DNA of 64,000 bases from Candidatus Omnitrophota bacterium (lineage in GTDB: Bacteria; Omnitrophota; Gorgyraeia; Zapsychrales; JANLHA01). Positions 7,410 through 52,537 of this stretch are shown piece by piece. The notes beneath the pieces were generated by a model that was not told the origin of the DNA, searched no databases, and was given only the letters and a program-made list of their open reading frames with translations. A program made the translations under genes and the position numbers. The stretch is taken from positions 410,890 to 474,889 of the forward strand of contig JACKFJ010000001.1 in the NCBI GenBank assembly GCA_020632535.1, in the 5' to 3' direction. Position 1 is the stretch's first letter; each line of letters starts with the position of its first letter.

Positions 7410-9071
7410 TCATTTTGTCCTGATTGGTAAAATCAGCGTAAACGTTGTTCCGTGTCCGTTCTCACTAACAACTGCAATTTCCCCGCCGTGGTCTTTAATA
7501 ATGCCATGAGTTATCGGTAGCCCCAATCCAGTTCCCGCGTCCTTGGTACTAAAGAACGGATCAAAGATATGGGTGAGATCATTCTTGCTAATGCCGGATC
7601 CTGTGTCGGTAATCGAAATGCAAATAGTCCCATTGCGAGGAGCCTCTTGAGGCGACGCTGGAATCTGAGTTTGATTCGTGCCTTCGGCACTCGCAATGGT
7701 ACTAATAGTTAGCGTTCCCCCCAACTTCATCGCGTCAATGGCATTAAGAAAGATATTAAGCAGAGCTTGGCGCATTTTATTATGGTCAAGTAAGATTAGT
7801 ATGTCGCATTCGGGCGCAAGTTGGGTCTTGACTATGATCTTTTGTTGCAAAAATTTGCTGGATAAAAAGTCAAGTGTATCCGAAATAAGTTTGTTAGGAT
7901 TTGTTTCCTTAAGTTGTATGGGGGAGGGTCGCGCAAATTCAAGGAGCTCATTAACCAGTTCGTCAATGCGCTTGACTTCTCCGCCGACGATGCGCGAAAA
8001 TTTTTTCAAAAATTCTTTGTCGTCGAGTTTATTGGGTAAATATTCACTAAATGTCTTGAGGGCAGTCAATGGGTTTTTGATTTCATGGGCCATTCCGCTG
8101 GCTAAGATCGCGACACTTTTGAGTTTCTCAGTTTCAAAAACTTCCGCGCGCAACAACTCATTTTCCTGTGATATTTCTTCCGTGGTTTTCTTGAAAATGA
8201 ATTTGTCCACAATGCGTTGAATATAGCTGTGGAGTGGAAAGAATGCGATCCCAAGGACGAAAGCTGCGATGATACTAATGCTAATGGACTTATATCCCCA
8301 AAAACCTTGGATAAACTTTTCAGATACAAGAATTAATCCAAAATATAGCAGTGCTGTTAAGAGGATTAGAACCGAATAGGTAAAACTTTTTTTAATAACT
8401 ACACTTATGTCAAGAAATTGGTACTTGAAAATCGCGTAAGAAATTGCAAGGCAAGGCGTAATTGCAATAAAATTGCCCCAAGGATAAATATTCCATCCAT
8501 ATGCTGGAAAGAAGTTTGTTATGCTCCCAGCAAATCCTAACAATGTGAGATTGAAAATGAGTCTTAATTCGGTTTTTTGTTGAGGATATAATCTTTTGAA
8601 TGCGCTTAAAAATATGAGATGCCCAATGGTAATTACAAAAACCCAGAATATAAAAGAAACTGTAAATATTGGTGTCGCAATGTGATAATAAAAGGAGTTA
8701 AACATGACTCGAAAGTTAGCCATCATTGCTTCTTGAAATATTGCAACGGCAAAGAATATTGCTTGTGCATAAACTAATAAAATGTCCCATTTCTGTTTTC
8801 GCTGAATCATTTCGTAGCTGGTGTGATAGAAAAATACAGGTATAAATAAAACCGCAGCGTACGCAAATTTCCAAATTATCTTTATGAAAATAATATTTGT
8901 TATTGTGGCAATGAGGACTGCAGATATTCCCCACATTGCAATAGCAAATAAGTAACAACCGTAGATTCTTGAAATTTTAGTTTTGCCTTTTATAAAAATA
9001 AAAAGTGATAGTGGGAAATAAAGCGCAAACATTATGAGCCCGGATATCGCAAATGGATTTAGTGGATTCAT
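7410..9071 (-). CDS. sensor histidine kinase, 7TM-type N-terminus (paralog 1)
   Basis: Multi-TM N-terminus, H-box (SGMAHEIKNPLTAL), N-box (NIFLNAIDAM), and G-boxes (DTGSGI, GTGLGL). Carries the in-frame repeat insertion. Confidence 0.9.
   Translation of the reverse strand: MNPLNPFAISGLIMFALYFPLSLFIFIKGKTKISRIYGCYLFAIAMWGISAVLIATITNIIFIKIIWKFAYAAVLFIPVFFYHTSYEMIQRKQKWDILLVYAQAIFFAVAIFQEAMMANFRVMFNSFYYHIATPIFTVSFIFWVFVITIGHLIFLSAFKRLYPQQKTELRLIFNLTLLGFAGSITNFFPAYGWNIYPWGNFIAITPCLAISYAIFKYQFLDISVVIKKSFTYSVLILLTALLYFGLILVSEKFIQGFWGYKSISISIIAAFVLGIAFFPLHSYIQRIVDKFIFKKTTEEISQENELLRAEVFETEKLKSVAILASGMAHEIKNPLTALKTFSEYLPNKLDDKEFLKKFSRIVGGEVKRIDELVNELLEFARPSPIQLKETNPNKLISDTLDFLSSKFLQQKIIVKTQLAPECDILILLDHNKMRQALLNIFLNAIDAMKLGGTLTISTIASAEGTNQTQIPASPQEAPRNGTICISITDTGSGISKNDLTHIFDPFFSTKDAGTGLGLPITHGIIKDHGGEIAVVSENGHGTTFTLILPIRTK
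7630..7699. repeat. family-1 palindromic element embedded in frame in a kinase gene
   Basis: Terminal inverted repeats ccattgcgag (7630-7639) and ctcgcaatgg (7690-7699). The left arm cattgcgaggagc is identical to intergenic copies. It encodes ...IPASPQEAPRNG... between the N-box and G1-box. Confidence 0.75.
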
Positions 9072-10798
9072 TGATTTGTCACCGTAGTAGAGGGAAGAGT
9101 GATTGAGAATGTCGTTCCCTTTTCTTTAATACTCGCCACTGTAATCTTTCCATCATGATCCTCAATAATTCCCTTAACAATCGCAAGTCCTAGGCCAGTT
9201 CCGGTGTCCTTGGTGCTGTAGAATGGTTCAAAGATTTTGTTGAGATTTTCTTTGGATATGCCAAGGCCAGTGTCGGTGAAGGTGATGACAACAGTCCCAT
9301 TGCGAGGAGCCTCTTGAGGCGACGCGGCAATCTGTATAGATTGCGAACGGAGTGAGTCCCTGTGGGACTTCATCACTGCGTTCTTCGCAATGGCAGTGAT
9401 TATAAGCTTCCCGCCATTAGGCATGGCCTCGAGAGCATTGAGAATCAAATTGATGAAAACTTGCAACAGTTTATTGGAGTCAGCTTTGATGGTCGGTAAA
9501 TTGTCCAAAAATTCTGTGACGACTTTAATATTTCCTTTGCGTAGCTGATTAGTGGTTAAGTTAAGCGCGTGTTCGAGCGTGTTCTTGATATTCGTGTCTT
9601 TTAGAGTCAGGGGAGAGGGTTTGGCAAATTCGAGCAGTTCGTTTAAAATGTTTTCGATTCGGGTAATTTCAGTGCTGGCAAGCGATTCAAATTTAGCAAC
9701 AAATTCTGGATCATTCCTCTTTTTAGGGAAATATTCAACAAAAGTCTTAAGTGCTGTTAATGGATTACGTATTTCATGGGCGATACTACTTGCTAAAGTT
9801 GCGATGGTTTTTAGTTTTTCATGCTGGACTGCTTCTTTTTTGAATTGAGTGTTTTCTTCGACAATTTGAGGAATTGTTCGGTGGAAAAAACGTTTTTCAA
9901 ACCATTCTTGAATAATATTTCGGAACGGGACAAATGTAAACGCGATGAAAATTGTGGAAATCAAAGAAGGCATAATTCCTGTATAACCAATTACTCGTTG
10001 AAGACTTCGTTCTAAAACAAAGACAAATGCTAGGTAGATGACGGTGATTAATGTTAAGAGTGTTGAATAGATAATGCTTTGTTGAATGATGACTTGTATG
10101 TCCATTAATCGATGTCTTACGATCGCATAAGCGCATATCAAAATAAATAATGTGGCGGGTAAATAACCTATTGGATAAATGGGTATACCATAATTGGCAA
10201 TGAAATCAATACACGCAATATCAAATATTGCCAATCCGAATATCATGTATTTCATTTGATTTCGTAAGGTAATTTTATTGATATGTACTTTTAAGCCCTT
10301 TATCAAAATTATTAGACTTCCCGGTAAAGTAATAAGTGCATAAATTAAGAAATGTGGGTGATAAGTGCCTGCTTTGGGGTAATACCCCCAAGAGTAATGA
10401 TATAATCCTGCAAAAATGTAGTTGGTGTTGATAACTAAATAGCAGAAAAGTGCACTAAGGAGATTTCCTATAAAAATTAATTTTTCAAGTCTTTTGATTC
10501 CGGCAAGGGTGATTGCATAAGCGAGCATATTCATTCCAATAAAACAAACTCCGCAATATCCCAGTCGATAGAGCCATTGGATGAGCTTTGGGTCCGCAAA
10601 AAGCGATAGCGTATAATTTATGGAATAAAGGAAAAGCCATACAAAGGTCGCAAGGCAGAGGTAAAAGAATCGCTGATTAAGAAGGGATGATGGGTTTTTT
10701 ACTAAGACGAAAATCCCTGTCACCAAAATTAAAAGTGACGATAAGAACGGCGGGATAGAGTAAGGGTTGATTTGAAATGCAACGTCATGCAGCATCAA
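9068..10798 (-). CDS. sensor histidine kinase, 7TM-type N-terminus (paralog 2)
   Basis: Same architecture as 7410-9071 (SSIAHEIRNPLTAL, NLILNALEAM, DTGLGI, GTGLGL). 4-nt overlap with the downstream paralog. Confidence 0.9.
   Translation of the reverse strand: MMLHDVAFQINPYSIPPFLSSLLILVTGIFVLVKNPSSLLNQRFFYLCLATFVWLFLYSINYTLSLFADPKLIQWLYRLGYCGVCFIGMNMLAYAITLAGIKRLEKLIFIGNLLSALFCYLVINTNYIFAGLYHYSWGYYPKAGTYHPHFLIYALITLPGSLIILIKGLKVHINKITLRNQMKYMIFGLAIFDIACIDFIANYGIPIYPIGYLPATLFILICAYAIVRHRLMDIQVIIQQSIIYSTLLTLITVIYLAFVFVLERSLQRVIGYTGIMPSLISTIFIAFTFVPFRNIIQEWFEKRFFHRTIPQIVEENTQFKKEAVQHEKLKTIATLASSIAHEIRNPLTALKTFVEYFPKKRNDPEFVAKFESLASTEITRIENILNELLEFAKPSPLTLKDTNIKNTLEHALNLTTNQLRKGNIKVVTEFLDNLPTIKADSNKLLQVFINLILNALEAMPNGGKLIITAIAKNAVMKSHRDSLRSQSIQIAASPQEAPRNGTVVITFTDTGLGISKENLNKIFEPFYSTKDTGTGLGLAIVKGIIEDHDGKITVASIKEKGTTFSITLPSTTVTNQ
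9297..9393. repeat. family-1 palindromic element embedded in frame in a kinase gene
   Basis: ccattgcgaggagcctcttgaggcgacgcggcaatct-gtat-agattgc...ttcgcaatgg. It shares cattgcgaggagc, gcaatct/agattgc and tcgcaatgg with the intergenic consensus. It encodes ...RSQSIQIAASPQEAPRNG.... Confidence 0.75.
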
Positions 10799-11783: not shown

Positions 11784-11880
11784 TGTCATTCCCGCAATCT
11801 TTGGATTGTCATTCCCGCAATCTTTTAGCGGGAATCTATTCTCATAGCAGATCCCCGATAAGAGCTTTCGGGGATGACAG
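11784..11880. repeat. family-2 repeat (TGTCATTCCCGC...GGGGATGACA), one partial plus one full copy
   Basis: It contains two hairpins, attcccgc/gcgggaat and atccccga/ttcggggat, bounded by tgtcat/atgaca. The same element occurs at 36912-36984 and partially at 6183-6209 and 48911-49041. Confidence 0.75.
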
Positions 11881-14726: not shown

Positions 14727-14929
14727 CCATTGCGAGGAACGCAGTTTTGTACCCATTGCGAGGAACGAAGTAAATTTCTCATTGCGAGGAGCGAAGCGAC
14801 GAAGCAATCTATATCAGATTGCCGCGTCGGCCTTTGGCCTCCTCGCAATGATGGTGTCCATTGCGAGGAGTGAAGCGACGAAGCAATCTATATCAGATTG
14901 CCGCGTCGGCCTTTGGCCTCCTCGCAAGG
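14727..14929. repeat. family-1 palindromic repeat array (2 left-arm stubs plus 2 full 71-bp elements)
   Basis: Stubs lie at 14727 and 14752. Full elements at 14780-14850 and 14859-14929 read cattgcgaggag[c/t]gaagcgacgaagcaatct-atatc-agattgccgcgtcggcctttggcctcctcgcaa[tg/gg]. Confidence 0.9.
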
Positions 14930-14942
14930 AGAATAAAAAATT

Positions 14943-15239
14943 ATGAATATGGGTTTCGTCTATTTATTAATGAACAAAAGTAACACCGTTATCTACACTG
15001 GTGTCACACGCAATTTAGTGAAAAGAATTTATGAGCATAAAAACAAACTTGTCGATGGGTTTACCAAAAAATATAACGTAACAAAGTTGGTATATTTTGA
15101 AGTATTTGATGATTTGATATATGCGACTATTCGAGAAAAGCAGATCAAAGCTGGATCGAGAGACGATAAGTTAAAACTCATTGCTCAAAATAACCCCCAT
15201 TATTTTGATTTGTATGATGAGATTGCCGCGTCGTATTGA
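14943..15239 (+). CDS. GIY-YIG (URI-domain) nuclease family protein
   Basis: 98 aa. FVYLL...IYTGVTRNLVKRIYEH fits the GIY...YIG...R..EH pattern. The last codons (gag att gcc gcg tcg, 15220-15233) are identical to the start of the family-1 right arm. Confidence 0.8.
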   Translation: MNMGFVYLLMNKSNTVIYTGVTRNLVKRIYEHKNKLVDGFTKKYNVTKLVYFEVFDDLIYATIREKQIKAGSRDDKLKLIAQNNPHYFDLYDEIAASY

Positions 15240-15248
15240 AATATAGCT

Positions 15249-15542
15249 CCCATTGTGAGGAGCGAGGTAAATTTCTCATTGCGAGAAGCGAATAATAGTT
15301 CCCATTGCGAGGAGCGAAGCGACGAAGCAATCTATTGTAGATTGCCGCGTCGGCCTTTGGCCTCCTCGCAAGGAAAAGCAGATTGCCGCGTCGGCCTTTG
15401 GCCTCCTCGCAAGGGTATTGGCTCACATTGCGAGGAGCGAAGCGACGAAGCGATCTATTGCAGGTTGCCGCGTCGTTCCTGCGGAACTTCTCGCAATGGA
15501 ACAAGAGATTGCCGCGTCGGACTTTGACCTTCTCGTAATGGT
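15249..15542. repeat. family-1 palindromic repeat array (2 stubs, 2 full elements, 2 isolated right halves)
   Basis: Full elements at 15303-15373 and 15426-15499. Isolated right halves, each starting at (g)agattgcc, at 15379-15414 and 15506-15542. Confidence 0.9.
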
Positions 15543-15594: not shown

Positions 15595-18500
15595 ATGAAA
15601 AAGTTTCCTTGGGGGAAAAGCAGTATTACTTTGAGTTTTTTAGTATTAACACTAATTTCACCAAATTTATCTTTCGCGGCTGCCCCGTCCGCCACTCAAG
15701 TTTTTACGCTTTCCGAAAATCTCGACGTTGATCCCTCAACAGGAACATCATCGATTTCGATTCCTATCGAAGTCCCACAAGGCCGCGCCGGCATTCAACC
15801 GAGCATCGGCCTTCTCTATAATTCGAGCGGTGGTAATGGTATCTTGGGCGTCGGCTGGAGTATGGAACTAGGATATATTCAGCGCTCAACCAAAAAAGGT
15901 GTTCCTCAATATAACTCGACTGACATTTTTGTCCTTTCACAGGCTGGCTCACAACAAGAATTAGTCGACATTAGCGGCAATGGTACTGAATTTCGTCCAG
16001 AGACGGAAGGCGCTTTTATGAAAATTCAATTTAGTGGAACGTCTTGGACATTAACGGATCGTAAAGGCACAAAATACTTTTTCGGGACTAATATTGCGAG
16101 TCGTGTTTATGACCCAACGAATTCCTCAAAAGTTTATCGTTGGGCTTTAGAACGTGTTGAAGATATTAATGGCAATTATATGACCGTGACATATGTGCGC
16201 GATGATAATCAGGTGTATCCTTCCGTAATTAATTATACCGGTAACACAATCGCGACTTTACCAACGTACGCGCAAGTGCGTTTTAATTATGAATCCAAAA
16301 CGACTTTGGCGGATTTTTCTGAAAATTATTTGGCGGGATTTAAAATTGCTTCCATGCGCCGCATCAAAAATATTGAAGCGTATGTGGGGACAAATCTTGT
16401 TCGACGATATCAGATGAACTATTCGCTCGAAGCGGAGATGGCGCGTTCACTCCTTAACAGTGTAACGCTTATTGGCAGTGATGGGACATCGACTTTGCCA
16501 GCGACAAGGATGACTTACAGTGTTGGGGAGACAAAAATGTTGCCGCCGGTTTCGATTAATAATCGGCCGAATACAGATCTAAATAGCGACGCGCAATACG
16601 TCCGCATGATTGACATGAACGCCGATGGAAAGGTCGATATCTTAAACGGTTCAGCGGCGGGATCATGGCAGATTTATTTTAATCAAAGTACAAATGATCT
16701 TGTCAATTACGGTACCGCTGTGGCGGCAGTCAATTCACCGAATTATGGTGCGAATATTGGCGATTTGCGCGTTGTTGATATGAACGGGGACGGATTGATG
16801 GATGTGGTTTACGGCAAGGGGGCTCCGTACACCATATGGATTAATAATGGCATTAATGGATTTAATCCACCTGTCGTAACAACGAATAGTACGCATATGT
16901 GGCTCGGAGACCAGAATTCCGTTCAACTCATCGATATGAATGGGGATGGTAAAACTGATATCCTCGCAAGTTCACAGACAACGGGAGGTGAGTGGAAAAT
17001 ATTTTTTAATACAACTGGAAGTGATTTTGCGCCGGGGATTACTGTCGCTAATGCACCAACTAAGGGATTTAATAATTCACAAGTGCAAATGGGTGACTTT
17101 AATGGTGACGGGCTTACTGATGTTATTATCGGTGATTTGCCGACTTACAAAATCTGGATCAACAATGGTGTTAATGGCTTTAATGCTCCTGTTAATGTGG
17201 CAAGAACTTTTCCTTATGCTTTAAATTACGCTTACATGCAATTAGCCGATATGAACGGTGATGGACTAACAGACATTGTTCGGACGTCCGAAGACTCAAC
17301 GCTGGAATACTATATTTATACAAATAACGGAAAAAATGATTTTAACGCGGGATTTGCCGCGGTTAATCGTCCGGACTTTGGTTTTACCAACGGACAAGTG
17401 CGTCTTATGGATATTAACAGCGATCGGCAGTTAGACGTCGTCATTGGTTATCCGACGGGGACGGACACCCGCTGGCGCGTATGGCTTAATAATGGAACAA
17501 CGGGATTTAACCCTGCAATTGATTTGGGTAATTATCCTGAGGGTAACATTGGCGGAAAGAATTTTGTATTCGCAGACATTAATGCAGACGGCCGAATGGA
17601 TATCGTCATGGGGCCAGCAAGCAATTGGCAGGTGTGGCTTAACAAACATGATAGTCGCGCAAGTCGGCCATCGTCATTGATCGATGTGGATAATTCGGTT
17701 GGTGGACATTTGGAATTGGAGTATCAACATTTGCCAATCGCGGGTTTAGGCGGGATTGGATATAAAACCGCGGTCAGTCCTTTTCTCTTTAATTCTGTAA
17801 AAATAATTTCACGACGGGCGAGTCTGACCGGTGATGTCTATGTTTCCAGATATGATTTTAAAGGTGGGCTTTGGGACAATAAGAACCGTGAATTTAGAGG
17901 GTTTAAAACAGTCAAAATGATTGATCCCGATGGAAATTATAGCGTGACGGATTACGCGCAGGATGATATTTATCGCGGTCGACCATTAAGTCAAGCAAGT
18001 TACGATAGCCAAAACAGACTGTTTAGCAAAAGTGTAAACATTTGGAACAATCAAGTTCTTTATCCTAACGTGAATTTCCCTTTTTTAAAGCAAACGGACA
18101 GTTATCTTTATGATGGTGACGCGACCGGCCGTCGAACACAAACACAATATTTTTACGATGAAAGTCCACAGTGCGGAAATTTAACCAAGTCAATTAGTTT
18201 TGGAGAAGTCAATCTTACGACGGGCGTAGATATCGGGACGGACAAAAGTACGACCGAAGTGACGTATCACAATAATACGACAAAGTGGTTGTTGGGTTTG
18301 CCTAAGATTACGACGATTAAAGATAATGCGAATGCGGTTTTTGCGAAAACGACTTTTTATTATGATTCCGCTACCAATACAACAACATTGCCAACCAAAG
18401 GCTATTTGACCAAGAAAGTTAATTGGGCAGGGGACGCCGTTGGTACGGTACATCCGTTTACTTTATACACGTATGACACGATTGGTAATTTACTGACCAC

Positions 18501-21500
18501 ATCTGACAGCAACAATAGCACGACGTCAATTGTTTATGATACGACATACAAACTCTTTCCTTTGGAAACAACCAATGCCTTAGGCCATAAAGTCACCAAT
18601 GAATATTATGGGATTAATGGTGTCGCTTTAAGTGGGAGCGACACGACTTTTGGGTTATGGGGACAACTTAAGAGCACGACGGATCCGAATCAGAAGAAAG
18701 GCCTGCGCATTTATGACACTTTTGGCCGCACGGTCAAAATGATTTCGCCATTAGATACGATTGCTTTACCTACGACGAGTTATGAATATGTTTACGGCGC
18801 GGCGCAGTTAAAGGTTATTAGTAAACAGCGTATCAAATCCGGTGCCACTGGCACAATCGACACGGTTCGATTTTCCGATGGATTAGGTCGTGCTGTGCAA
18901 AGTAAATCCAAGTCTGAAATCCCCGGAAAGTTTATTGTCAGCGGGATCAGTGAATATAATTTGCGCGGATTACCAGTTAAGAAATATGTTTCCTATCTGA
19001 CATCAACTCCGTTAACAGAACTTGACAGTCTTGACACAACTCAGCCTTACACTTTAATCACGTATGACGCGATGGGACGGGTGTTGCGAACGACCGCGCC
19101 GGACGGCAGTTACTCGAATGTGATTTATGATGACTGGAACTCGACGAGCTATGATGAGAACGGACACATGCAAAAATCATACGCGGATGCGTTTGGGCGT
19201 TTAATCAAAAAGGAAGAATATCTTGGTGCTGATGGTCGTCATGCTGTTTATCCAGCCGCCGCGTTTACACTGTACGCGACAACATTGTACACTTATGACT
19301 CTAAGGGCAATTTGATTAAAACTCAGGATGCCAAAGGCAATATTACAACAATTAGTTATGACGCTTTGGGACGCAAGACGCAGATGGTCGATCCTGACAT
19401 GGGGACATGGAAGTATGGTTATGATGTCGAGGGTAATTTGATTTGGCAGGAGGACGCAAAGGGACAAAGAATCAATTTTACTTATGATCAAATTAACCGC
19501 CTAAAGTCAAAAACCGATTTAAGTGTATTGACTGTTAACTATACATACGACGACGTCAATGTACAGAATTCGAAAGGTCGATTGACCAGCGCGGCATACG
19601 GTGGAGGAAATACCGGATTTGCGTACGATGAGATTGGCCGCGAGTTGCAATCGATTAAAACGATTGGCTCAACGAATTATTCTGTTTCTCGAACATATGA
19701 TGCCGTGGACCGCTTGGTGACATTGCAGTATCCGCAAAGTACAAAAGTTGGATATACGTACAATCAAACCGGTATGGTTAATTCGGTGTTTGCGGTTTTG
19801 CCAACGACGGTTATGCCGAATCCGAGTGGCGATGAAACGATATATATGGCCTCGCCGTTCGCGCAATATCGTTTAAATGAAAGCGCGTCAACGACAGCAG
19901 TCGTCGACAGTGGCATTGGAAAGACCAATGTCACTTCTTCGGCTAACACATCAACATTGAGTAAAGCCGGAAAAATCAATAGTGCTTTTGGTTTTAATGG
20001 TACAAGTCATTTTGTCAACATGGATAATTTGCTTAATAAAATTCGCTATGACAATAAGGGAAGCTTTTCGATGTGGATTAAGCCGGAGGCGGGAAGTACA
20101 CTGCTGAGTTTTGGCGGGGTAGGCGGATATTTTTCGATGGAGTGGTATGAAGCCAATCAGTCTTTGTCATTTGCTGTTTCGGGCGGCGGAACACCAATTA
20201 GCGCGACGACACCAACGGGAAGCGTGGCTGTTAACAATTGGGTGCATGTCGCGGTTGTGCAAGACGGCGTGAATTTAAAAATTTATATCAACGGTGTTGA
20301 ACAGCCGCTTTTTTATTGGATGCAGAGCAATAAGGGGGCGTGGTTTAGCTATGTCTCATCTGGACTTAATTATGGACGGATGGGTGCGTTTAATAATTCA
20401 TCGAATCCGACGAGCAATAACAGTTTCTTTAAGGGTAACATCGACGATGTTCGGTATTATTCAAATAAAGCATTGATTCCGCATGAAGTTTGGGGAATTT
20501 ATAACAATGGCGCGGGAACGGAAGCTGAAAATCCTGTAATTAGCAATACTCCGCCGCCATCGGTGGCGATGGTGACTTATATGGCACCAGCATTTGCGCA
20601 GTTTAAACTCAATGACAATGCCGCAAACACCGAAGTTATTGATGAAACGGTTGGATATAATGATGGCGTCGCGACACATAATACAAACGCGATGAGCACG
20701 ACGGGAAAGATTAATTCGGCTTTGGCGTTTAATGGGACGAATCAATATGTCGATATGAGCAGTTTGTTTGCGGATATTCGCACGGATACGGTTGGAACAT
20801 TTAGTTTGTGGGTTAAGCCGGTCAATAGTTATCCGATTTTGGAATTTACCGGTAGCGGTGGATATTTTGTCATTGAATGGTACAAGAATAATCAGTCCGC
20901 GACTTTCGCGATTTCGGGTGCGGGAACGCCGATTGCATGTACGACGCAAACTGGCAGTATGCCAGCCAACACGTATTCGCATCTTGTAATTTCGCAAGAT
21001 GGTACGCAATATAAAATTTACATTAACGGGGTTTTGCAGCAAAATTTAACGAAGTGGTTTAATAGTAATCTCGGCGCGTGGTTTAAATTTTTAACGGGGT
21101 CAATTACAAATAGCCGATTAGGTTCGGCCGTTGAAGGTAGTAATCAAGCGTTTTTTAATGGAAACGTTGATGATTTGCGTTATTACAAAAAGGCGCTAAC
21201 TTTGACGGAAATTCAGACGCTTTATAATAATGGTGCGGGTACAGAAGAAGCGTCACCTGCCATTGGTGGCGCGCCAGTTTTGCCGCCGCTTGAACCGTCA
21301 ACTGTTCCGGCGAGCGCGGGGCAAGTTTATATTAACAATGTGGATTACAATGCTTTGGGGCAAATGACCAAGGTTGAATTTGGTAATGGTGTTGTGACGA
21401 CGTATACGTATTCTCCGACGATGCTGCGTTTGACAAATATCACGTCGACGAATGCCGCGGGGACAGTATTGCAAAATTTTTCGTACACGTATGATGGTGT

Positions 21501-23223
21501 GGGAAACATTACCGCGATTGTCGACGCTGTTAATACCGCCACGCAAACATTTAAGTACGACGCGCTCAATCGTTTGACGCAAGCGGTAGGCGCATATGGC
21601 ACCAAAAATTATACGTTCGATCAGATTGGTAATATTATTACCAAAGATGGTTTGACGTATACGTATAGCAAGGTCGCGGCCGGTCCGCACGCGGTCACGT
21701 CTTTGTCCGACGGAACCACGATCACGTATGACATTAACGGCAATATGACAAGCAAGTCCAAGGCCGGCGAGGTCATGCAGTATTTTTATGATTCCGAGAA
21801 TCGCTTATCGAGTGTAAAAAAGAACACATCGCTTATTGCTGAGTATTTGTACGACGGAGATGGCGGGCGGGTGCAAAAAACTTCGTATGTCACGACACCG
21901 GCAGTTGTCACCAAATACATTGGCGAAATGTATGAGGAAACCGACAATGTCGGCACGATGTTTGTCTTTTTGGGAAGCCAGCGCGTCGCGGCAATTGACA
22001 CGAATAGCGGGACACCGTTGTACTATCACATGGATTATTTAGGTAGTACGAATGTGATGAGCGATAATAACGGCAACGTCGCGGAACTTATCGAATATGA
22101 TCCATACGGAAAGATTCAGCGTCATGACAATTATGGCGGAAACACCCGTTTGGCCAAGCAACAATTTACCGGAAAAAAGCTGGACGACGAAACCGGATTG
22201 ATATATTTTGGAGCTAGATATTACGACCCGCTCCTTGGCAGATTTATAACAGCAGATACGATTGTCCAGAATCCGTCCGATCCGCAAACTCTAAACCGTT
22301 ATAGTTATTGCCAAAACAACCCGATAAATAAGATAGACCCAGATGGACATCGGAGTTGGTGGAAAAAATTCTGGGGTGGTGTAAAGGATTTCTTTCGCGA
22401 TTTTGGTGGGTTAATTGGTTTAAATGGATTAATCTTCAACGGTATTATAAATCAGGATTGGAAACCCTTTGTAAATGTAGTTACCGCTGCAGCATCAGCG
22501 TTCGTGTTTTCTGGTAATCCAATTGCGGCAGCAGCTGCTGCAGGAACTACGATGTTTCTTGATACTAAGCCTGGTCGACAGTTGACAGGTTTTGTTGCCT
22601 CAGAAGTCATGGATGATATGCTTGGAATGCGACCTGGAACTGCGCAGGTTTGGGCAAGGGTTGGGTTGCAAGTTGCCGGGACATTGGCTGCTGAAAATAT
22701 AATGAAGAATGCTATTGCTGACCCAGCAACAGCTTCACAAGTAAATGACCAAGTTGCAGAAGCTAAAGCCATTGGTGGTAAATCAAAAGGTTATGACCCA
22801 GCAGGTGGTAGATATCCTGGAGGTGGAGCGAACAGGGGGTTTGACCTTGCGAATAAGGATGTAAAAGTTATGGCACTAACAGTAAAGGGACAAACTAATC
22901 CAACTGCTGTTCTTGGTACAGGGAAATTTGCTGGAGGAACATTATTGCATACTGGTGCAGTTTCGTCTTCTTTCCCAGGGGGAGAAATAGTGAAATTGCC
23001 TTTTGGCAATAACTTTTTAAATGGATATGGAACAGTTTTTGGCGTATGTCATCAGGCGACAAATGCTACATTATTAGTCAGTGGTATTAGTAGTACTGTA
23101 TGGGATTTAGCGCCTCATTGGTCAACATTTGCTTCGACAATAACATATGGAAATTACGGAGGACAATTGTCAAATTATGTTTACACGGGAATTAGGACGG
23201 ATTTAGCATATGATAAGAATTGA
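15595..23223 (+). CDS. giant Rhs/YD-repeat polymorphic toxin (TcB/TcC-fusion-like) with two LamG-like inserts
   Basis: 2542 aa. In order: signal peptide; SpvB-like region (GIQPSIGLLYNS...GVGW); about 7 FG-GAP/VCBS repeats (DMNGDGLTD); TcdB-mid-like region (REFRGF); YD repeats; Rhs core end NPINKIDPDGH; then a ~290-aa variable C-terminus. Confidence 0.9.
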   Translation: MKKFPWGKSSITLSFLVLTLISPNLSFAAAPSATQVFTLSENLDVDPSTGTSSISIPIEVPQGRAGIQPSIGLLYNSSGGNGILGVGWSMELGYIQRSTKKGVPQYNSTDIFVLSQAGSQQELVDISGNGTEFRPETEGAFMKIQFSGTSWTLTDRKGTKYFFGTNIASRVYDPTNSSKVYRWALERVEDINGNYMTVTYVRDDNQVYPSVINYTGNTIATLPTYAQVRFNYESKTTLADFSENYLAGFKIASMRRIKNIEAYVGTNLVRRYQMNYSLEAEMARSLLNSVTLIGSDGTSTLPATRMTYSVGETKMLPPVSINNRPNTDLNSDAQYVRMIDMNADGKVDILNGSAAGSWQIYFNQSTNDLVNYGTAVAAVNSPNYGANIGDLRVVDMNGDGLMDVVYGKGAPYTIWINNGINGFNPPVVTTNSTHMWLGDQNSVQLIDMNGDGKTDILASSQTTGGEWKIFFNTTGSDFAPGITVANAPTKGFNNSQVQMGDFNGDGLTDVIIGDLPTYKIWINNGVNGFNAPVNVARTFPYALNYAYMQLADMNGDGLTDIVRTSEDSTLEYYIYTNNGKNDFNAGFAAVNRPDFGFTNGQVRLMDINSDRQLDVVIGYPTGTDTRWRVWLNNGTTGFNPAIDLGNYPEGNIGGKNFVFADINADGRMDIVMGPASNWQVWLNKHDSRASRPSSLIDVDNSVGGHLELEYQHLPIAGLGGIGYKTAVSPFLFNSVKIISRRASLTGDVYVSRYDFKGGLWDNKNREFRGFKTVKMIDPDGNYSVTDYAQDDIYRGRPLSQASYDSQNRLFSKSVNIWNNQVLYPNVNFPFLKQTDSYLYDGDATGRRTQTQYFYDESPQCGNLTKSISFGEVNLTTGVDIGTDKSTTEVTYHNNTTKWLLGLPKITTIKDNANAVFAKTTFYYDSATNTTTLPTKGYLTKKVNWAGDAVGTVHPFTLYTYDTIGNLLTTSDSNNSTTSIVYDTTYKLFPLETTNALGHKVTNEYYGINGVALSGSDTTFGLWGQLKSTTDPNQKKGLRIYDTFGRTVKMISPLDTIALPTTSYEYVYGAAQLKVISKQRIKSGATGTIDTVRFSDGLGRAVQSKSKSEIPGKFIVSGISEYNLRGLPVKKYVSYLTSTPLTELDSLDTTQPYTLITYDAMGRVLRTTAPDGSYSNVIYDDWNSTSYDENGHMQKSYADAFGRLIKKEEYLGADGRHAVYPAAAFTLYATTLYTYDSKGNLIKTQDAKGNITTISYDALGRKTQMVDPDMGTWKYGYDVEGNLIWQEDAKGQRINFTYDQINRLKSKTDLSVLTVNYTYDDVNVQNSKGRLTSAAYGGGNTGFAYDEIGRELQSIKTIGSTNYSVSRTYDAVDRLVTLQYPQSTKVGYTYNQTGMVNSVFAVLPTTVMPNPSGDETIYMASPFAQYRLNESASTTAVVDSGIGKTNVTSSANTSTLSKAGKINSAFGFNGTSHFVNMDNLLNKIRYDNKGSFSMWIKPEAGSTLLSFGGVGGYFSMEWYEANQSLSFAVSGGGTPISATTPTGSVAVNNWVHVAVVQDGVNLKIYINGVEQPLFYWMQSNKGAWFSYVSSGLNYGRMGAFNNSSNPTSNNSFFKGNIDDVRYYSNKALIPHEVWGIYNNGAGTEAENPVISNTPPPSVAMVTYMAPAFAQFKLNDNAANTEVIDETVGYNDGVATHNTNAMSTTGKINSALAFNGTNQYVDMSSLFADIRTDTVGTFSLWVKPVNSYPILEFTGSGGYFVIEWYKNNQSATFAISGAGTPIACTTQTGSMPANTYSHLVISQDGTQYKIYINGVLQQNLTKWFNSNLGAWFKFLTGSITNSRLGSAVEGSNQAFFNGNVDDLRYYKKALTLTEIQTLYNNGAGTEEASPAIGGAPVLPPLEPSTVPASAGQVYINNVDYNALGQMTKVEFGNGVVTTYTYSPTMLRLTNITSTNAAGTVLQNFSYTYDGVGNITAIVDAVNTATQTFKYDALNRLTQAVGAYGTKNYTFDQIGNIITKDGLTYTYSKVAAGPHAVTSLSDGTTITYDINGNMTSKSKAGEVMQYFYDSENRLSSVKKNTSLIAEYLYDGDGGRVQKTSYVTTPAVVTKYIGEMYEETDNVGTMFVFLGSQRVAAIDTNSGTPLYYHMDYLGSTNVMSDNNGNVAELIEYDPYGKIQRHDNYGGNTRLAKQQFTGKKLDDETGLIYFGARYYDPLLGRFITADTIVQNPSDPQTLNRYSYCQNNPINKIDPDGHRSWWKKFWGGVKDFFRDFGGLIGLNGLIFNGIINQDWKPFVNVVTAAASAFVFSGNPIAAAAAAGTTMFLDTKPGRQLTGFVASEVMDDMLGMRPGTAQVWARVGLQVAGTLAAENIMKNAIADPATASQVNDQVAEAKAIGGKSKGYDPAGGRYPGGGANRGFDLANKDVKVMALTVKGQTNPTAVLGTGKFAGGTLLHTGAVSSSFPGGEIVKLPFGNNFLNGYGTVFGVCHQATNATLLVSGISSTVWDLAPHWSTFASTITYGNYGGQLSNYVYTGIRTDLAYDKN

Positions 23224-36880: not shown

Positions 36881-36911
36881 GGGTAGGGACGTTGCCGATT
36901 TTTTAGGTCTT

Positions 36912-36984
36912 TGTCATTCCCGCAGTCTTTTAGCTGGAATCTGTTTTGTCGTGGATCCCCGATAAGAGATTTCGGGGATGACAA
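36912..36984. repeat. family-2 repeat, full copy
   Basis: tgtcattcccgcagtcttttagctggaatc...ggatccccgataagagatttcggggatgaca. Confidence 0.8.
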
Positions 36985-36991
36985 GGTTGGA

Positions 36992-37092
36992 ATAGATTGC
37001 TTCGTCGCCCTGCGGGCTCCTCGCAATGGGATTTATGGCCTAACGGCCTCCTCGCAATGGGATTTATGGCCTAGCGGCCGCATCGCAATGGT
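36992..37092. repeat. family-1 right half followed by 2 extra 31-bp tandem copies of its terminal segment
   Basis: atagattgcttcgtcgccctgcgggctcctcgcaatggg, then (atttatggcct.[ag]cggcc.c.tcgcaatgg) twice. Confidence 0.8.
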
Positions 37093-37225
37093 ATTTAAAA
37101 GTCGCCTACTTTTTTAATTTGCATTTTTGTTAAAGTTCGGCTAATATGTTTGTGTTTTCCCAATAAATACCCCTTACAAATATAAAAATGTGTTTATACC
37201 ATCCATTAACGTGAGGGGTCATTTT

Positions 37226-40200
37226 ATGCAGTTTTACCGCAATTATCGTTTTATTTCGTATCTCGTAATTTCTTCCATTTTAACGATTGTCATGTCTACA
37301 AGCGCTTTTGCCCGTCACTCACAGGCAAGTTTTAATGTTTTCACCAAAACATACACTAGAGACAACGGAAAACCAAAAGCGATCATAGATACCTTTACCG
37401 TTCTTAATCCGCAGACCAAGTGGCAAATCAAAGTGTCAGTTGTTGAAAATGCCCACGACAAAAAACATCATAAAAATAAGCATGATAAGGATTGGAAGCA
37501 TGATGATGACAACGATGTCAACTTTGTGATTTACTTGAATGGCCGCAAAATTCTAAAATCAGAGCGTTGTGATCGTCATTCTCGAGCAATTGAAGAAACA
37601 GTCAATCTCAAATCGCACAATACCCTTTCAGTTGAACTTCGTGGTAAGCCCAATAGTAAAATTGTTGTACAAATCAGCGGAGTTGATTCAAACCGTCCGA
37701 TCATCAATTGGGTAAAACCACTTTCAGGACAATCTTTTAACAATGCCAATATCGCGACTCAATTAAAGTTGGAAGAAGATATCTCGGGACTTGATCCTGC
37801 GAGCTTGCAAATTTTGTTGGATAATGTTTCGGTTCGCAATAGTTTTCAGCCTTTAGCGCAAGCGACGCTTTCCGCAAATCTTTCCGCGACTTTGCCGATG
37901 ACAGATGGTCAACATACTCTGACCGCCACGATCAAAAACTTGGCGGGGCTTATTGAAACCAAGTCAGTTTCGTTTACCGTTACGGGGATAGATCCAAATT
38001 TGAAAGATCAAGATAATGATGGTTACACGCCTAACACGGGTGATTGTAATGATCATAATTTTGACATTCATCCCAATTCGGTCGAGATTCCCGGAAACAA
38101 TATTGATGAAGATTGTGATGGCGTTGATTCGGTTGTCGTTGTGAATGTCGTTGGGCTTTTTCAATTAGGCGCAGAGTCGGCGATTAACGCGGCAAATCTG
38201 CAACTTGGGGATGTGACATCGGATCATAGTCAAACAGTTGCAATCGGAAAAGTCATCACCCAGAACCCTGCGGCGGGTGAAATTGTTCCAAAAGGGACAG
38301 CTGTCGGTTTGATGATTTCTTTAGGGCCATTGGTTGATACGAATATTCCACCGGATCCAGCTACTGTTGCGCCAGCGATCAATAAATCAGGGTTAACCAA
38401 TTTTTTTGAAGCTACAAGTTTTCTTTATTCTGGTGAAAAGCCAATTCAAACTGGCGTGCAACCGAATGTTATCAATCCTGTTCGTACGGCAGTTCTTCGT
38501 GGGAAAATTTTAACCAAAGACGGAACTCCATTGTCAGGAGTTAAGGTGAGTATTCTTAAACAACCTGAGCTTGGGGAAACATTGAGTCGCGCGGATGGCA
38601 TGTTTGATCTTGTCGTCAACGGCGGCGGAGACTTGGTCGTCACTTATTCAAAGGAAGGATTGCTTCCCTCTAGCAGACAAATTCAAGTGCCGTGGCAGGA
38701 CTATGTCACTTTGCCTGATATTGTTATGATTCCCTCCGATACGCAGGTGACCTCGGTTGATTTGACATCAAACGCGGACTTTCAAGTAGCGCAAGGTTCA
38801 ACTGTTAGCGATCAGAACGGTCAACGGCAGGGAACATTATTAATTCCACAGGGAACACAAGCTAGTCTGATTATCTCCGGACAAGATAATCAACCAATCG
38901 ACAATTTGCAGATTCGGATCACCGAATATACCGTTGGGCCGCTTGGTCCACTGGCGATGCCCGCGGAATTACCGGCAACGAGCGCGTATACATACGCGTT
39001 TGATGTCAACGCGGATGAAGCGCTAGCCGCAGGTGCCAGCGAAGTCGTATTTAGCCAACCTTTGATTTACTATGTTGATAATTTTTTAAATTTTCCGGCG
39101 GGAATTGGGACGCCATTAGGTTTTTATGACGAAAAAAAAGGACAATGGATTCCGTATGATAATGGCCTCGTCATTAAAATTTTAGGTATTCAAAACAATA
39201 TTGCTCAACTGGATATCGATGGCAGTGGTCAGGCCGCGTCAGAAGAAGATTTGGCAAAGGTTGGGATCACGTTTGCAGAGCGGCAAAAACTCGCTTCTCT
39301 ATATAGTGCAGGTAAATCGGTTTGGCGTGTTTTGATACCGCATTTTTCGTCTTGGGATATCAACATGGGTGTTGGGCCTCCGGAAGACGCGATTGCCGCG
39401 CTCGTTGCGATTATTGCTGCTTATGCTGTGTCGATTGAAGAACCAGATTGTGTTAATGGTTCAATTATCGAATGTCAAACACAAGTTTTGGGAGAAAGTG
39501 TTGATGTCAATAATACTCCCTTTACACTTAATTATCGCAGTGATCGCGCGGCTGGGCATAAGGCATCTTTTTCAACCAAAATTAATGTTTCTCAAGGTCC
39601 ACTACCAGAGAGTCTTAAGCGTATTGTTTTAGAAACTTCGATTGCTGGACAAAAATTTCATCAAGAATTTGCGCCGCAGAGCAATTTGACTGTTCCTTTT
39701 ACGTGGAATGGGAAAGATGTCTATGGCCGCGTGTTACATGAACCGCAGGTTGTCAATTTTCGCGTTGGATATGTTTATGATGGTGTTTATCAAGTTGCTC
39801 CGCGGTTTGGATATAACGGCAACGGGATGATTATTGAGAGCAATTATCCCGGCACTGGTTCGGGGCTCAAGATGCGTCAGGAAATAACCATTTGGCAATC
39901 CACATCGCATGTCCTTGGGGTTTTGGATGCTCGTCAGCAACGATTAGGTGGATGGACTTTAAACGCGCACCATGTTTATGATCCCATATCCCAGACTCTT
40001 TATTATGGGGATGGTTCTAAGAAACAAGGTGTTAAAGGTCAGGTTGGAAAAAATAATATTGTGTCGACGGTGATGCAAGGTGATCTTTACTCTCTCGTTG
40101 ACGTTGGACCTGATGGCAGTATTTATACTGTTGAAGGAAGTGGAATAGAATACGGAGATGTTGTTATTCGTCGGAGTTATCCTAATGGAACTTCAAAAAT

Positions 40201-43200
40201 TGTTGCTGGCGGTGGATCCTCAGCAGTTGGAAATGGTGACGGTGGTCCGGCCACATCCGCCAAAATAAAAATATTGTCCCTCGGTGGTCTTGCTGTTGCT
40301 TCTGATGGGACAATTTATATTGGGGAATTTTTGGATGGTTCAGGTCAGGGACGTGTTCGGCGCATTACGTCTGATGGGATTATTACAACGTATGCTGGGG
40401 GAGGAGATCCCCAAAGCGGAGTCGGTGACGGTGATTTGGCAACACAAGCGTCGCTTAGTAATGTCCGCGGATTGGCAGTTGGGCCGGATGGTTCATTATT
40501 TATTTCCGATTATGGCCATGCTGCCGTTCGCAAAGTTGATACGGATGGTATCATTTCATCAATTGCGGGCGCTGTTGGACCGATCGATATCGATGTGGCA
40601 CAGGATGGGAGTGTGTATTTTTCTGATTTGTTAGCTCCACATAATATTCCACGAATTTGGCGTGTTTTGACGTCGGGAACATTGGAAAAAGTCGCTGCTG
40701 CTGATTGTGAAAGTACTGACGCGAATTGTTATCGTTTTGAGAATAAAGAAGCGGCGCTTGGTTTAACCATAGCTTCGGATCAAGCTATTTATTTTGCTTC
40801 GACGGGAGCTACTGCTTATTCAAATTATATTTATCGCTTAAGTCAAGGGGTGTTAACATCTATCGCGGGATCTGATTTGCGTGATAATACTGTTCGCGAA
40901 GGGATCAGTACGCAGGTTGGAATATTTCCAGTTAATCTGGCTTTTAGTCCGGATGGCAGTTTGTATTTTGCCAATTCTTCGATTTCACTGCAAAGAATCA
41001 CTTCAACTTTACCCGGATTTAAGATCAATAATATTGAAGTCGCGTCTGACGATGGGTCTGAGCTGTATGTTTTTGATAGCGCGGGTCATCATCTTAAAAC
41101 TGTCAGTACTTTAACGGGATTACCGCTTTATCAATTTGGTTATACCGCAAATGGGTTAAGCACAATTACTGATCGCGACGGTAATATCACTCAAATTGAA
41201 AGAACGAGCAATGGTGATGTCAGCGCGATTGTTTCACCATATGGTCAACGCACGACTTTGCATGTCGGCGCCAATGGGTATTTGGATAAAGTTATTGAGC
41301 CTAATGGCGATACGCATCAATTTGTGACATCAAGTGAAGGATTGTTAGCACAATTTATCAATCCCCGTAATAATACATCCAAATTTACATATGACACTTT
41401 GGGTCAATTGACAAGAGATGAAAATCCCGAGGGGGTTTTGTATGATTTAAGCCGTAAGGCGATTGCTGATGGTTACGAGGTGACTCTAAAAGACGCTTTG
41501 AATCGTGCAAGCCTTTATCAGAGTGAATATTTTGAAAATGGTGAGGAGCGTCGCCTGATAACGCTTCCTGACGGGACGCAGAGTTCGATGCTGATTCGTC
41601 CGGATTATAGTGTGTCTTCAACATACGCGGACGGGACAAGTGTTGATCTTGTTCGTGCCGCTGATGCACGGTTTGGTATACAGTCACCGTTGATTTTGAG
41701 TCAAACGGTGCGCACGCCGGGCGGTTTGACTTCGACATTGTCAACGACGCGCGTAACGAATTTAGCGAATCCGATTGATTTATTGTCGGTGATCAATCAA
41801 TCCGAAACTTTGAATATTAACGGCAAAGTTTATAGTGTTTATTATGACATTGCCTCAAAGACAAAATCTGTAATTTCACCGGAAGGTCGATTTAGGGTTG
41901 CGAATTTTGACAATCGTGAACATGTCGTTAAAGAGCAGTCTGGGGTGTTTGAGCCTGTCAATTATACGTATGACGCGCGCGGGCGTTTGATTCAGTCGAC
42001 GCAAGGATCAGGGGCGGAAAAAAGAACGCTCAATTTAACTTATAATGCCGACGGTTTTCTAAGTGATGTTACCAATTCTCTAAACGAAAAGGTAAGCTAT
42101 ACGTACGACATCAAAGGCCGTGTCTTAAAGCAAACATTGCCTGATGGGCGCTTTGTTGAGTATACCTATGATGCCAACGACAACTTGACGTCGATCACGC
42201 CTCCGGGGCAACCTAAGCATAATTTTGTGTATTCCCTCGTTGATTTGGTCGATCAGTATAATCCGCCTGTTATTGTCGGCGGCGGCCAGACAACTTTTCT
42301 TTATAATCGTGCCAAGCAATTGACAACTGTCACGCGTCCGGATGGGCAATTGATCACGTATGACTATAATCCTGCCGGACGATTGTCGGTTATGACAACG
42401 CCGCGAGGGCAGACAACGTACTCATATAACCCGGCAAGCGGATACATTAATACTGTCACGGCTCCTGATGGGGGATCGCTAACTTATACGTACGACGGAT
42501 CATTGCTGTTAAGCAAAACTTGGGGTGGGACAATTCATGGGAGTGTCAGTCAAAGTTATGACAATGATTTTCGAATTGTTTCGCAAAGTGTCAATGGCGG
42601 CTCGACGGTCAATTTCGCTTATGACAATGACGGCCTCTTAACCCAAGCAGGTTTGATGAGTATGAGCCGTAATCCTACGTCGGGATTCTTGGTTGGGACG
42701 ACATTAGGCAATTTTGCGACGACTTTTGGGTATAACAATTTTGGTGAATTGGGTAATGATGCCGCTAAGTACAACGGAACAAATTATCTAGAACATCAAT
42801 ACACGTATGACACGGTCGGGCGAATCGTGACCCGAAGTGAAACCGACCAAAACAAAACGGATCAATACCGTTATACGTATAACAGTGCGGGACGTTTAAC
42901 GGATGTTACTAAGAATAATGTTGTGGTGTCGCATTATGAGTATGATGCCAACGGCAATCGTTTAAGTCGTTCGTCGTCTGGGACAACGGAAAGCGCCACG
43001 TATGATGCTCAAGATCGATTGCTTACGTATGGAAGTTTAAGTTATACATACACGGCCAATGGGGAGTTAAAAAGTAAAACCGACTCATCAACGAACCAAA
43101 CGACGCAATACAAGTATGACGTCCTTGGGAATTTGATGCAGGTGACTCTTCCTGATGGGAAAGTCATTGATTATGTGATTGATGCCAACAATCGGCGCAT

Positions 43201-44636: not shown

Positions 44637-44687
44637 GAGATTGCCGCGTTCGCGCTCGGCTCAAAGCCTCGCGCTCACTCGCAATGG
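44637..44687. repeat. family-1 right-half variant at the orphan cassette junction
   Basis: gagattgccgcgttcgcgctcggctcaaagcctcgcgctcactcgcaatgg. Rhs homology starts 7 nt later. Confidence 0.8.
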
Positions 44688-46448: not shown

Positions 46449-46499
46449 GAGATTGCCACGTTTGCGCTCGGCTCAAAGCCTCGCGCTCACTCGCAATGG
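46449..46499. repeat. family-1 right-half variant at the Rhs fragment junction
   Basis: gagattgccacgtttgcgctcggctcaaagcctcgcgctcactcgcaatgg differs from 44637-44687 at 2 positions. Confidence 0.8.
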
Positions 46500-48820: not shown

Positions 48821-48828
48821 GTTAAGAA

Positions 48829-48898
48829 CATTGCGAGCGATTTTTGCGAAGCAATCTATACGAGATTACTTCGTCGGCCTGCGGCCTCCTCGTAATGG
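48829..48898. repeat. family-1 palindromic element, degenerate full copy
   Basis: cattgcgagcgatttttgcgaagcaatct-atacg-agattacttcgtcggcctgcggcctcctcgtaatgg. Confidence 0.75.
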
Positions 48899-48921
48899 GA
48901 TTTGAACGCGGATCCCCGATA

Positions 48922-49041
48922 GAAGCATTCGGGGATGACACGCGTGAAGCATTCGGGGATGACAAGCGTGAAGCATTCGGGGATGACAAGCGTGAAGCAT
49001 TCGGGGATGACAAGCGTGAAGCATTCGGGGATGACAGGCGG
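48922..49041. repeat. 5 x 24-bp tandem repeat derived from the family-2 3' arm
   Basis: (gaagcattcggggatgaca[a/c]gcgt) x5, preceded by ggatccccgata, which completes the family-2 hairpin with the first unit. Confidence 0.9.
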
Positions 49042-52402: not shown

Positions 52403-52445
52403 GTTTTTTTTGAATTGAATGGAGTGAATTGAGTAAGGGAAATCT

Positions 52446-52537
52446 CATTGCGAGGAGCGTTAGCGACGTGGCAATCTGTAGTAGATTGCCACGCCCTTCG
52501 GGCTCGCAATGGGAAGAAAATATCGGGCTCGCAATGG
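52446..52537. repeat. family-1 palindromic element plus a duplicated 25-bp tail
   Basis: cattgcgaggagcgttagcgacgtggcaatct-gtagt-agattgccacgcccttcgggctcgcaatggg, then gaagaaaatatcgggctcgcaatggg. Confidence 0.8.

Follow-up and report, generated by a model that had tools for sequence, protein, structure and literature searches.

A nuclease gene enclosed by palindromic repeats

A stretch of 64,000 nt from a Candidatus Omnitrophota bacterium (contig JACKFJ010000001.1), here called the window and used for all coordinates below, carries at 14943-15239 an open reading frame (ORF) for a 98-aa protein with a GIY-YIG nuclease domain, lodged between arrays of a single palindromic repeat, the family-1 element. 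The locus raises the question of whether nuclease and repeats belong together and, if they do, what kind of system they form. An earlier note, made from these letters alone, had proposed a pair analogous to RAYT and REP and had stated that no characterised mechanism was known for such a pairing. One was in fact described in 2025 for the Ssn nucleases and their repeats (PMC11893778). We consider it very probable that the window ORF encodes an Ssn nuclease and that the family-1 element consists of the hairpin units which its enzyme most likely recognises, and the locus is thus a further example of the published nuclease-repeat pairing.

Ssn proteins are single-domain GIY-YIG nucleases of about 94 aa (CDD cd10448, GIY-YIG_unchar_3; Chenal et al. 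2025, Nat Commun 16:2388, PMC11893778). SsnA of Neisseria meningitidis binds a hairpin repeat, the NTS, solely as single-stranded DNA (ssDNA), cuts it a few nt upstream of the hairpin and has no action on RNA. Across bacteria ssn genes have flanking hairpin repeats termed SRM, found on both sides of 42% of the Ssn homologs, so that this is a typical feature and not a required one. The same authors likened the NTS-ssnA-NTS arrangement to an insertion sequence and to RAYT/REP (all from PMC11893778), and the analogy proposed in the earlier note has therefore been drawn by others too.

The nuclease gene and its family

14943-15239, + strand: ssn gene, 98-aa single-domain GIY-YIG nuclease (PF01541 match, homology to SsnA)

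The sole Pfam domain match of the ORF is GIY-YIG (PF01541, E=1.7e-15, residues 3-74), and as a single-domain GIY-YIG protein of less than 150 aa its product has the size of an Ssn nuclease. The SsnA ortholog of N. gonorrhoeae (94 aa, locus L081, positions 1489-1773) was used for comparison in place of N. meningitidis CAX49033.1. It was taken from a tblastn search of a 7.3-Gb plasmid collection (PLSDB), in which N. gonorrhoeae chromosomes were matched at E=1e-17; the source records, NZ_CP119140.1 and NZ_CP119142.1, are 2.17-Mb chromosomes filed as plasmids. The ORF at this match has Y6, Y17 and E64, the residues mutated in the published work (PMC11893778), and NTS repeats on its flanks.

The window protein is 45% identical to this ortholog over 89 aa without gaps (86.7 bits, E=5e-29), and the alignment spans residues 5-93 of 94, or 95% of SsnA; such a similarity to a characterised enzyme suffices to settle the fold. 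Conserved catalytic positions are Y7, Y18, R28, H32, E65 and N84, of which Y7, Y18 and E65 align with SsnA Y6, Y17 and E64 and are invariant in 22 homologs. Ssn membership has been defined by a BLASTP match to Neisseria SsnA with E<1e-10 and a query cover of 75% or more (Chenal et al. 2025, PMC11893778). Because the alignment lies within these limits, and because Escherichia coli YhbQ is distant (27% identity, 29.6 bits) and yhbQ has no flanking inverted repeats, the ORF is assigned on its sequence to the Ssn family.

It is very improbable that the gene encodes a free-standing GIY-YIG homing endonuclease, or a repair nuclease of the YhbQ/Slx1 type, to whose target the repeats would be irrelevant. 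YhbQ (UPF0213) and the Slx1-type proteins do share the fold family and the approximate size of the window protein, but the low identity and the bare flanks of yhbQ just noted argue against this assignment, as does the 98-aa ORF itself, which has no DNA-binding extension. A weak NCBIfam match to the group I intron endonuclease family TIGR01453 would favour a homing enzyme; its score, however, is 23 bits against a cutoff of 56, and it covers residues 3-36 only. Homing endonucleases of the I-TevI type join their nuclease domain to one that binds DNA and are carried by introns or phages, whereas no protein homolog was found in 50,697 phage records.

Homologs are otherwise numerous, with 10,004 clusters at 50% identity matched at E<=1e-3 and 3,088 at E<=1e-10. 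The plasmid collection gave 32 matches, 31 of them typed non-mobilizable, and no relative below E=0.05 was found among solved structures. A tblastn search of the window disclosed just one ssn gene, and in the collections the proteins of the window were found on one contig only. The comparisons below use 80 loci whose proteins are 53-67% identical to the window protein; they span about 18 phylum-level groups, counted from record titles, and include Patescibacteria, Cyanobacteria, Chloroflexota, Bacteroidota and several proteobacterial classes.

Structure of the repeat unit

All window copies of the repeat, read in one orientation, follow the plan (C/T)C-ATTGC-GAGGAG, a variable stem-loop with a stem of 4-5 bp, then GACGNN-GCAAT-CT. 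The 71-nt palindrome described in the earlier note consists of two such units in inverted orientation, with their tails facing and their heads outward, and its left arm and reverse-complemented right arm differ only in the inner stem-loop (GCGAAGC in one, GGCC-AAA-GGCC in the other). A folding energy of about -26 kcal/mol (z=-6.8) was obtained for the four full 71-nt palindromes, compared with the weak folding of single units as DNA (z between -1.2 and +1.4). The 14-nt tail end of the unit, AGATTGCCGCGTCG, occurs 17 times in the window with up to two mismatches against 0.45 expected, and the head motif CATTGCGAGGA 22 times against 1.3.

The inner stem was assessed on those units of the window and the 80 loci that have the GAGGA...GACG frame. 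Four nested Watson-Crick pairs, counted from the frame edges, were present in 71% of 31 distinct inner segments, compared with 6.5% (maximum 22.6%) when partners were permuted 500 times, and 14 different 4-bp inner stems are in use. A scan for perfect stems on all unit middles gave a modest signal (stems of at least 5 bp in 24% versus 6%), and it was the anchoring on the frame that made the covariation clear. The inner stem is kept as structure, not as sequence.

This bears on the proposal that the tip of the palindrome is a preferred breakpoint, which had been based on at least six isolated right halves said to share one start at the palindrome centre. The six are present (15380, 15506, 23972, 36994, 44638 and 46450), with the small correction that the copy at 36994 begins AGATTGCT and not AGATTGCC. 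Each half forms a hairpin unit by itself and has a covarying inner stem of its own; the solo halves are therefore complete, and breakage at the hairpin tip is not needed to account for them.

The Neisseria NTS consists of GTC, an ATT...AAT palindrome and then C; cutting is governed by the three nt that precede this palindrome, and binding by the C that follows it (PMC11893778). The window unit has the same grammar, namely a short 5' head, an ATT...AAT palindrome and a following C. Heads in the window genome read CC- or TC-ATTGCG, while the consensus of 388 units from other genomes is tGTC-ATTGCG; decay or a shift in specificity may lie behind the difference. Units of this ATTGCGA class are not matched by the published degenerate SRM pattern, and its single match in the window (11807-11839), a canonical NTS-like element, lies about 3.1 kb from the gene. 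Rfam, searched with the repeat region at E<=1, returned nothing but a meaningless microRNA match, and a literature search for the motif itself matched only unrelated primer sequences. A loose unit pattern (ATTGCGA...RGCAAT with mismatches) was dropped for its false positives across coding DNA; a stricter pattern and a hand-checked table were used instead.

Association of the gene and the hairpin units

Over the 80 loci, unit density is 6.4 per kb within 250 nt of the gene and roughly 0.25 per kb beyond 750 nt, the latter being an average over the outer distance bins, which amounts to an enrichment of about 25-fold. Hairpins of the ATTGCGA class adjoin 75 of these closest relatives. A forward unit ends no more than 80 nt upstream of the ATG in 50 loci, and an inverted unit starts between -1 and +60 nt from the stop codon in 54; in the 18 closest cases it starts at -1 or 0, and the unit edge itself builds the stop codon (TAGattgc, TGAgattgc). 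The layout common to the family has a unit that lies 1-80 nt upstream of the ATG and a second, inverted one that starts at the stop codon. The gene is the sole content between an adjacent forward and inverted unit in 48 loci, and neighbouring units form 151 alternating pairs as against 31 tandem ones. C-terminal read-ins of the types EIAS, EIAA and EIAT (for example EIASG, EIAAG and EIASD) were found in 13 of the 120 best protein matches.

These data bear out the claim that nuclease gene and repeats are a specific pair, and the Ssn hallmark of a gene flanked by its own oriented hairpin repeats (20-50 nt, with a directional head) holds in the broad sense. Generic intergenic palindromes of REP or terminator type that happened to lie beside an unrelated nuclease gene would explain why units also occur at eight other places of the window, away from the gene. 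Such a chance neighbourhood is hardly credible given the enrichment by the gene, the fixed positions and orientations in loci of many phyla, and an association that is already published for the Ssn family (PMC11893778); the match between hairpin class and protein motif described next argues against it as well.

All 70 proteins with [AG][GA]S after the sequence REKQxK have ATTGCGA-class units within 300 nt; the window protein has KAGSR. The six proteins of the xW type, Neisseria SsnA included, all have NTS or AT[TC]CTGAG units and none has ATTGCGA units, so that the motif (AGS versus W) tracks the hairpin class in 76 of 76 cases. Two of the three loci that have SRM-pattern matches within 500 nt, L066 and L075, whose proteins are 55-57% identical to the window protein (that of L066 is 61% identical to SsnA), carry canonical NTS at the places where the others have ATTGCGA-class units, that is, 10 nt before the ATG and, inverted, right after the stop codon. 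Such a correspondence is the pattern expected of co-evolving enzyme-hairpin pairs, and it makes residues 70-72, which follow the catalytic Glu, a candidate determinant of hairpin specificity.

Arrangement around the gene in the window

The placement of the ORF between arrays of one repeat, as the earlier note had it, was reproduced by the Pfam match and by a repeat finder, which returned arrays at 14727-14930 and 15250-15541, with repeat families of 3-7 copies each. The features are as follows.

14727-14778, + strand: truncated unit heads, two in tandem (CCATTGCGAGGAACG...), period 26 nt, located 5' of a full unit (sequence, repeat scan)
14779-14851: inverted unit pair, tails facing (forward 14779-14810, 5-nt spacer, inverted 14816-14851)
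14858-14930: second inverted unit pair, directly upstream of ssn (forward 14858-14889, inverted 14895-14930)
14926-14931, + strand: AAGGAG, candidate ribosome-binding site 11 nt before the ATG, formed where the preceding inverted unit ends (CTCGCAAGG|AG)
15220-15233, - strand: truncated inverted unit, 14-nt tail end (AGATTGCCGCGTCG) over codons 93-97 (motif search)
15250-15301, + strand: two truncated unit heads, tandem with a 26-nt period (repeat scan)
15302-15374: inverted unit pair (forward 15302-15333, inverted 15339-15374)
15380-15415, - strand: solo inverted unit (repeat and motif scans)
15425-15499: inverted unit pair with diverged inner stem GTTCC/GGAAC (forward 15425-15456, inverted 15462-15499)
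15506-15541, - strand: solo inverted unit, diverged (repeat and motif scans)

A 125-nt composite occurs on both sides of the gene, 15250-15374 being an 83% direct repeat of 14727-14851. In comparison with the family the layout is rearranged, since it is an inverted and not a forward unit that abuts the ATG; this unit supplies the AAGGAG, in agreement with the earlier observation of an AGGAG within the end of the preceding element.

The 14-nt unit match inside the ORF, reported earlier as its last five sense codons, was also recovered. The codons gag att gcc gcg tcg are present, but at 15219-15233 they are codons 93-97 and not the last five, as Tyr98 (tat) precedes the TGA. The ORF reads four extra codons (AASY) into the truncated unit, past the conserved C-terminus DLYDEI. 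The match is explained by the inverted unit that relatives carry at the stop codon: in the window the 3' unit, which usually starts at the stop, has slid two codons into DLYDEI and is truncated after 14 nt.

Promoter and terminator scans gave no signal above shuffled sequences, and T-tract terminators were not detected.

Dispersed copies

Units or unit pairs were found at eight further places of the window.

7630-7700: unit pair within the histidine-kinase ORF 7410-9071 (- strand), in frame in its HATPase_c domain (repeat scan)
9297-9400: unit pair within the paralogous histidine-kinase ORF 9068-10798 (- strand), in frame in the same loop
23972-24007, - strand: solo unit, inner stem GCCC/GGGC
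36994-37090, - strand: solo unit (36994-37029), then two tandem head stubs
44638-44687, - strand: solo unit with a long inner stem
46450-46499, - strand: solo unit, near copy of the unit at 44638
48828-48898: inverted unit pair (forward 48828-48857, inverted 48863-48898)
52445-52535: inverted unit pair and one head stub (forward 52445-52477, inverted 52483-52512)

The inverted pairs inserted in the two tandem kinase genes encode the peptides TIASAEGTNQTQIPASPQEAPRNGT (ORF 7410-9071) and IAKNAVMKSHRDSLRSQSIQIAASPQEAPRNG (ORF 9068-10798). Among 28 close Omnitrophota homologs the length of this HATPase_c loop ranges from about 5 to about 30 aa, and in several of them (P0277, P0284, P0288, P0291) the loop has a solo unit whose reading is in the opposite orientation (VIARS...EATKQS).

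The six solo units all point the same way and lie downstream of + strand genes. GC skew is strongly positive throughout the window (+0.09 to +0.19 per 8 kb, overall +0.15), and the + strand carries almost all of the long ORFs; the solo units place the predicted non-substrate strand on the + strand, in a small sample that is confounded with gene direction. The position of these units, together with the inverted unit at ssn stop codons, would also suit an action mainly at the RNA level, as 3' stabilisers or terminators of mRNA to which the nuclease link would be secondary. We regard this as unlikely: single units fold weakly, T-tracts and a matching Rfam family were not detected, units also occur within coding regions, and SsnA is inactive on RNA (PMC11893778).

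Three intergenic segments (11784-11880, 36911-37090 and 48828-49040) are mosaics of three hairpin classes, namely an NTS-like class (GTCATTCCCGC...GCGGGAATC, with the SRM match at 11807-11839), the ATCCCCGA class (GTCATCCCCGAAATCTCTTATCGGGGATCC) and the ATTGCGA class. As the window has one ssn gene, partners of the other two classes, if there are any, lie elsewhere.

Head-stub arrays

Besides full units, the window has tandem arrays of truncated heads with a few flanking bases, at 14727-14778, 15250-15301, 37030-37090, 48925-49035 and 52513-52535, with periods of 24-31 nt. The stubs of the ATTGCGA class start at 14727, 14753, 15250 and 15276 and, on the inverted side, at 37049, 37080 and 52525; the array at 48925-49035 consists of five 24-nt head stubs of a different hairpin class. 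In both classes the stubs always precede a full unit, on its head (5') side. Tandem truncated heads directly 5' of full units recur in 26 of the 80 loci, with periods of 18-40 nt. By analogy with SsnA this is the side on which an Ssn enzyme would cut, and the arrays fit an action there.

Predicted action of the enzyme and possible spread of the repeats

By the SsnA precedent, the window enzyme would bind the folded unit, on the strand C-ATTGCGAGG...GCAAT-C, when it is exposed as ssDNA during replication or repair or in incoming DNA, and would hydrolyse that strand a few nt 5' of the unit head. With the heads outward, both predicted cuts would fall outside an inverted pair or a unit-gene-unit module. 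Nicking at the centre of the palindrome, as the earlier note had supposed, is accordingly unlikely by precedent, SsnA cutting a few nt 5' of its hairpin and hence, in an inverted pair, at the outer ends. Cutting of this kind would shape recombination around repeat-rich regions, and the spread of the repeats may be a by-product or a selfish trait.

Several points weigh against the assignment of the gene and its units to an Ssn system. Flanks matching the SRM pattern are absent within 500 bp of the window gene, and only 3 of the 80 homologous loci have a match to the pattern within 500 nt. The window heads are CC or TC where relatives have GTC, and in Neisseria it is these three nt before the palindrome that matter for cutting. 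The window ssn copy does not have the standard flanks and could be a relic. Shared ancestry may lie partly behind the complete agreement of motif and hairpin class. Lastly, the role in Neisseria concerns natural transformation, and competence of this Omnitrophota organism would have to be assumed.

An autonomous mobile element would be compatible with an Ssn system, and we hold it possible though doubtful. Here the unit-ssn-unit module would be selfish, the nuclease moving or copying the module along with gene-less pairs, in the manner of MITEs (miniature transposable elements with inverted repeats), and solo units. The enclosure of ssn between inverted units in 48 of the 80 loci speaks for it, as do proteins still 53-67% identical in about 18 phylum-level groups, the BIME-like alternation of units (151 pairs to 31), the truncated heads accumulating on the predicted cutting side, and the units that lie in frame in a loop of histidine kinases, of which some homologs have a short version. 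Six of the 80 loci (L015, L018, L040, L074, L052 and L016) have another ssn homolog at a distance of no more than about 3 kb; in L015 and L074 the two copies score alike against the window protein (60.9% and 56.7%), which is consistent with recent duplication.

Against mobility stands the chemistry. GIY-YIG enzymes are hydrolytic nucleases and are not known to have strand-transfer activity. Target-site duplications were not seen at the solo units, and the units that flank the gene often differ in their inner stems and so are not true terminal repeats; phage homologs are absent from the records searched, and all but one of the plasmid-collection matches are non-mobilizable. The sole in vivo data, from Neisseria, concern an effect of SsnA on transformation and not transposition (PMC11893778). 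A classical pair of insertion sequence (IS) and MITE was rejected, as there is no transposase domain, the flanking inner stems differ and solo units show no duplications.

More tentative still, and on balance improbable, is the idea that the unit-ssn-unit module is a self-propagating element of a new mechanistic type, in which the AGS versus xWx motif sets the hairpin class that is recognised. A purely hydrolytic GIY-YIG ssDNA nuclease would here cut beside the unit heads and provoke repair or template-switch copying. Through this copying the genome would acquire further solo units, inverted pairs and tandem head stubs, and tolerant protein loops such as that of HATPase_c would be colonised in frame.

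Comparison with known systems

The closest counterpart of the window locus is the Ssn/NTS system (PMC11893778). Common to both are a single-domain GIY-YIG protein of about 95 aa whose catalytic residues agree (identity to the Neisseria ortholog is 45%) and a gene flanked by oriented hairpin repeats, of which others lie dispersed or in clusters through intergenic DNA. The repeats differ: in the window class the outer stem is ATTGC, the internal loop GAGGAG/GACGNN is conserved and the inner stem varies; this class is not matched by the SRM pattern, has CC or TC heads in place of GTC and occurs mostly as inverted pairs. Window units also lie in frame within genes, whereas in N. meningitidis just 2% of NTS fall within genes.

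RAYT proteins (TnpA-REP) with their REP, REPIN and BIME repeats resemble the window locus in that a nuclease gene, present as one copy, has short palindromic repeats of its own on its flanks, in inverted pairs and arrays of alternating orientation, and in being long-lived and widely distributed. RAYTs, however, are relatives of HUH/Y1 transposases and act through covalent DNA intermediates, in contrast to a hydrolytic GIY-YIG enzyme, and there is no kinship in sequence or fold. Pfam and NCBIfam find just GIY-YIG and no HUH/Y1 domain in the window protein. In the IS200/IS605 family, too, a gene is bracketed by hairpins, and TnpA recognises hairpins, imperfect ones, on one strand of ssDNA; it belongs to another enzyme class, and excision and insertion chemistry is proven for IS200/IS605 but not for Ssn. 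Rickettsia palindromic elements (PMC10969869) are likewise palindromic repeats carried in frame in protein genes and tolerated in surface loops, but they measure about 150 bp and have no established dedicated enzyme, while the window insertions are Ssn-type unit pairs of 70-100 bp.

The main value of the locus is that an apparently orphan pair of nuclease and palindrome can be filed as an Ssn nuclease with its cognate repeats. Details that add to the published pairing are the ATTGCGA hairpin class missed by the published pattern, the overlap of units with the stop codon, the head-stub arrays, the motif-to-class correspondence and the in-frame unit pairs in two histidine kinases. As the ATTGCGA class is invisible to that pattern, published counts of repeat-associated Ssn genes are probably underestimates. 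The motif that switches with the hairpin class is a candidate determinant which would be useful if these enzymes were developed as programmable ssDNA cutters, and the head-stub arrays and kinase insertions are sequence footprints that bear on how the repeats multiply.

Two very long ORFs of the window, 15595-23223 (2542 aa) and 37190-44095 (2301 aa), each have a repeat cluster just upstream of their start; in Neisseria, NTS clusters adjoin surface-protein genes (PMC11893778). The translation of ORF 15595-23223, on reading, contains many YD-type repeats.

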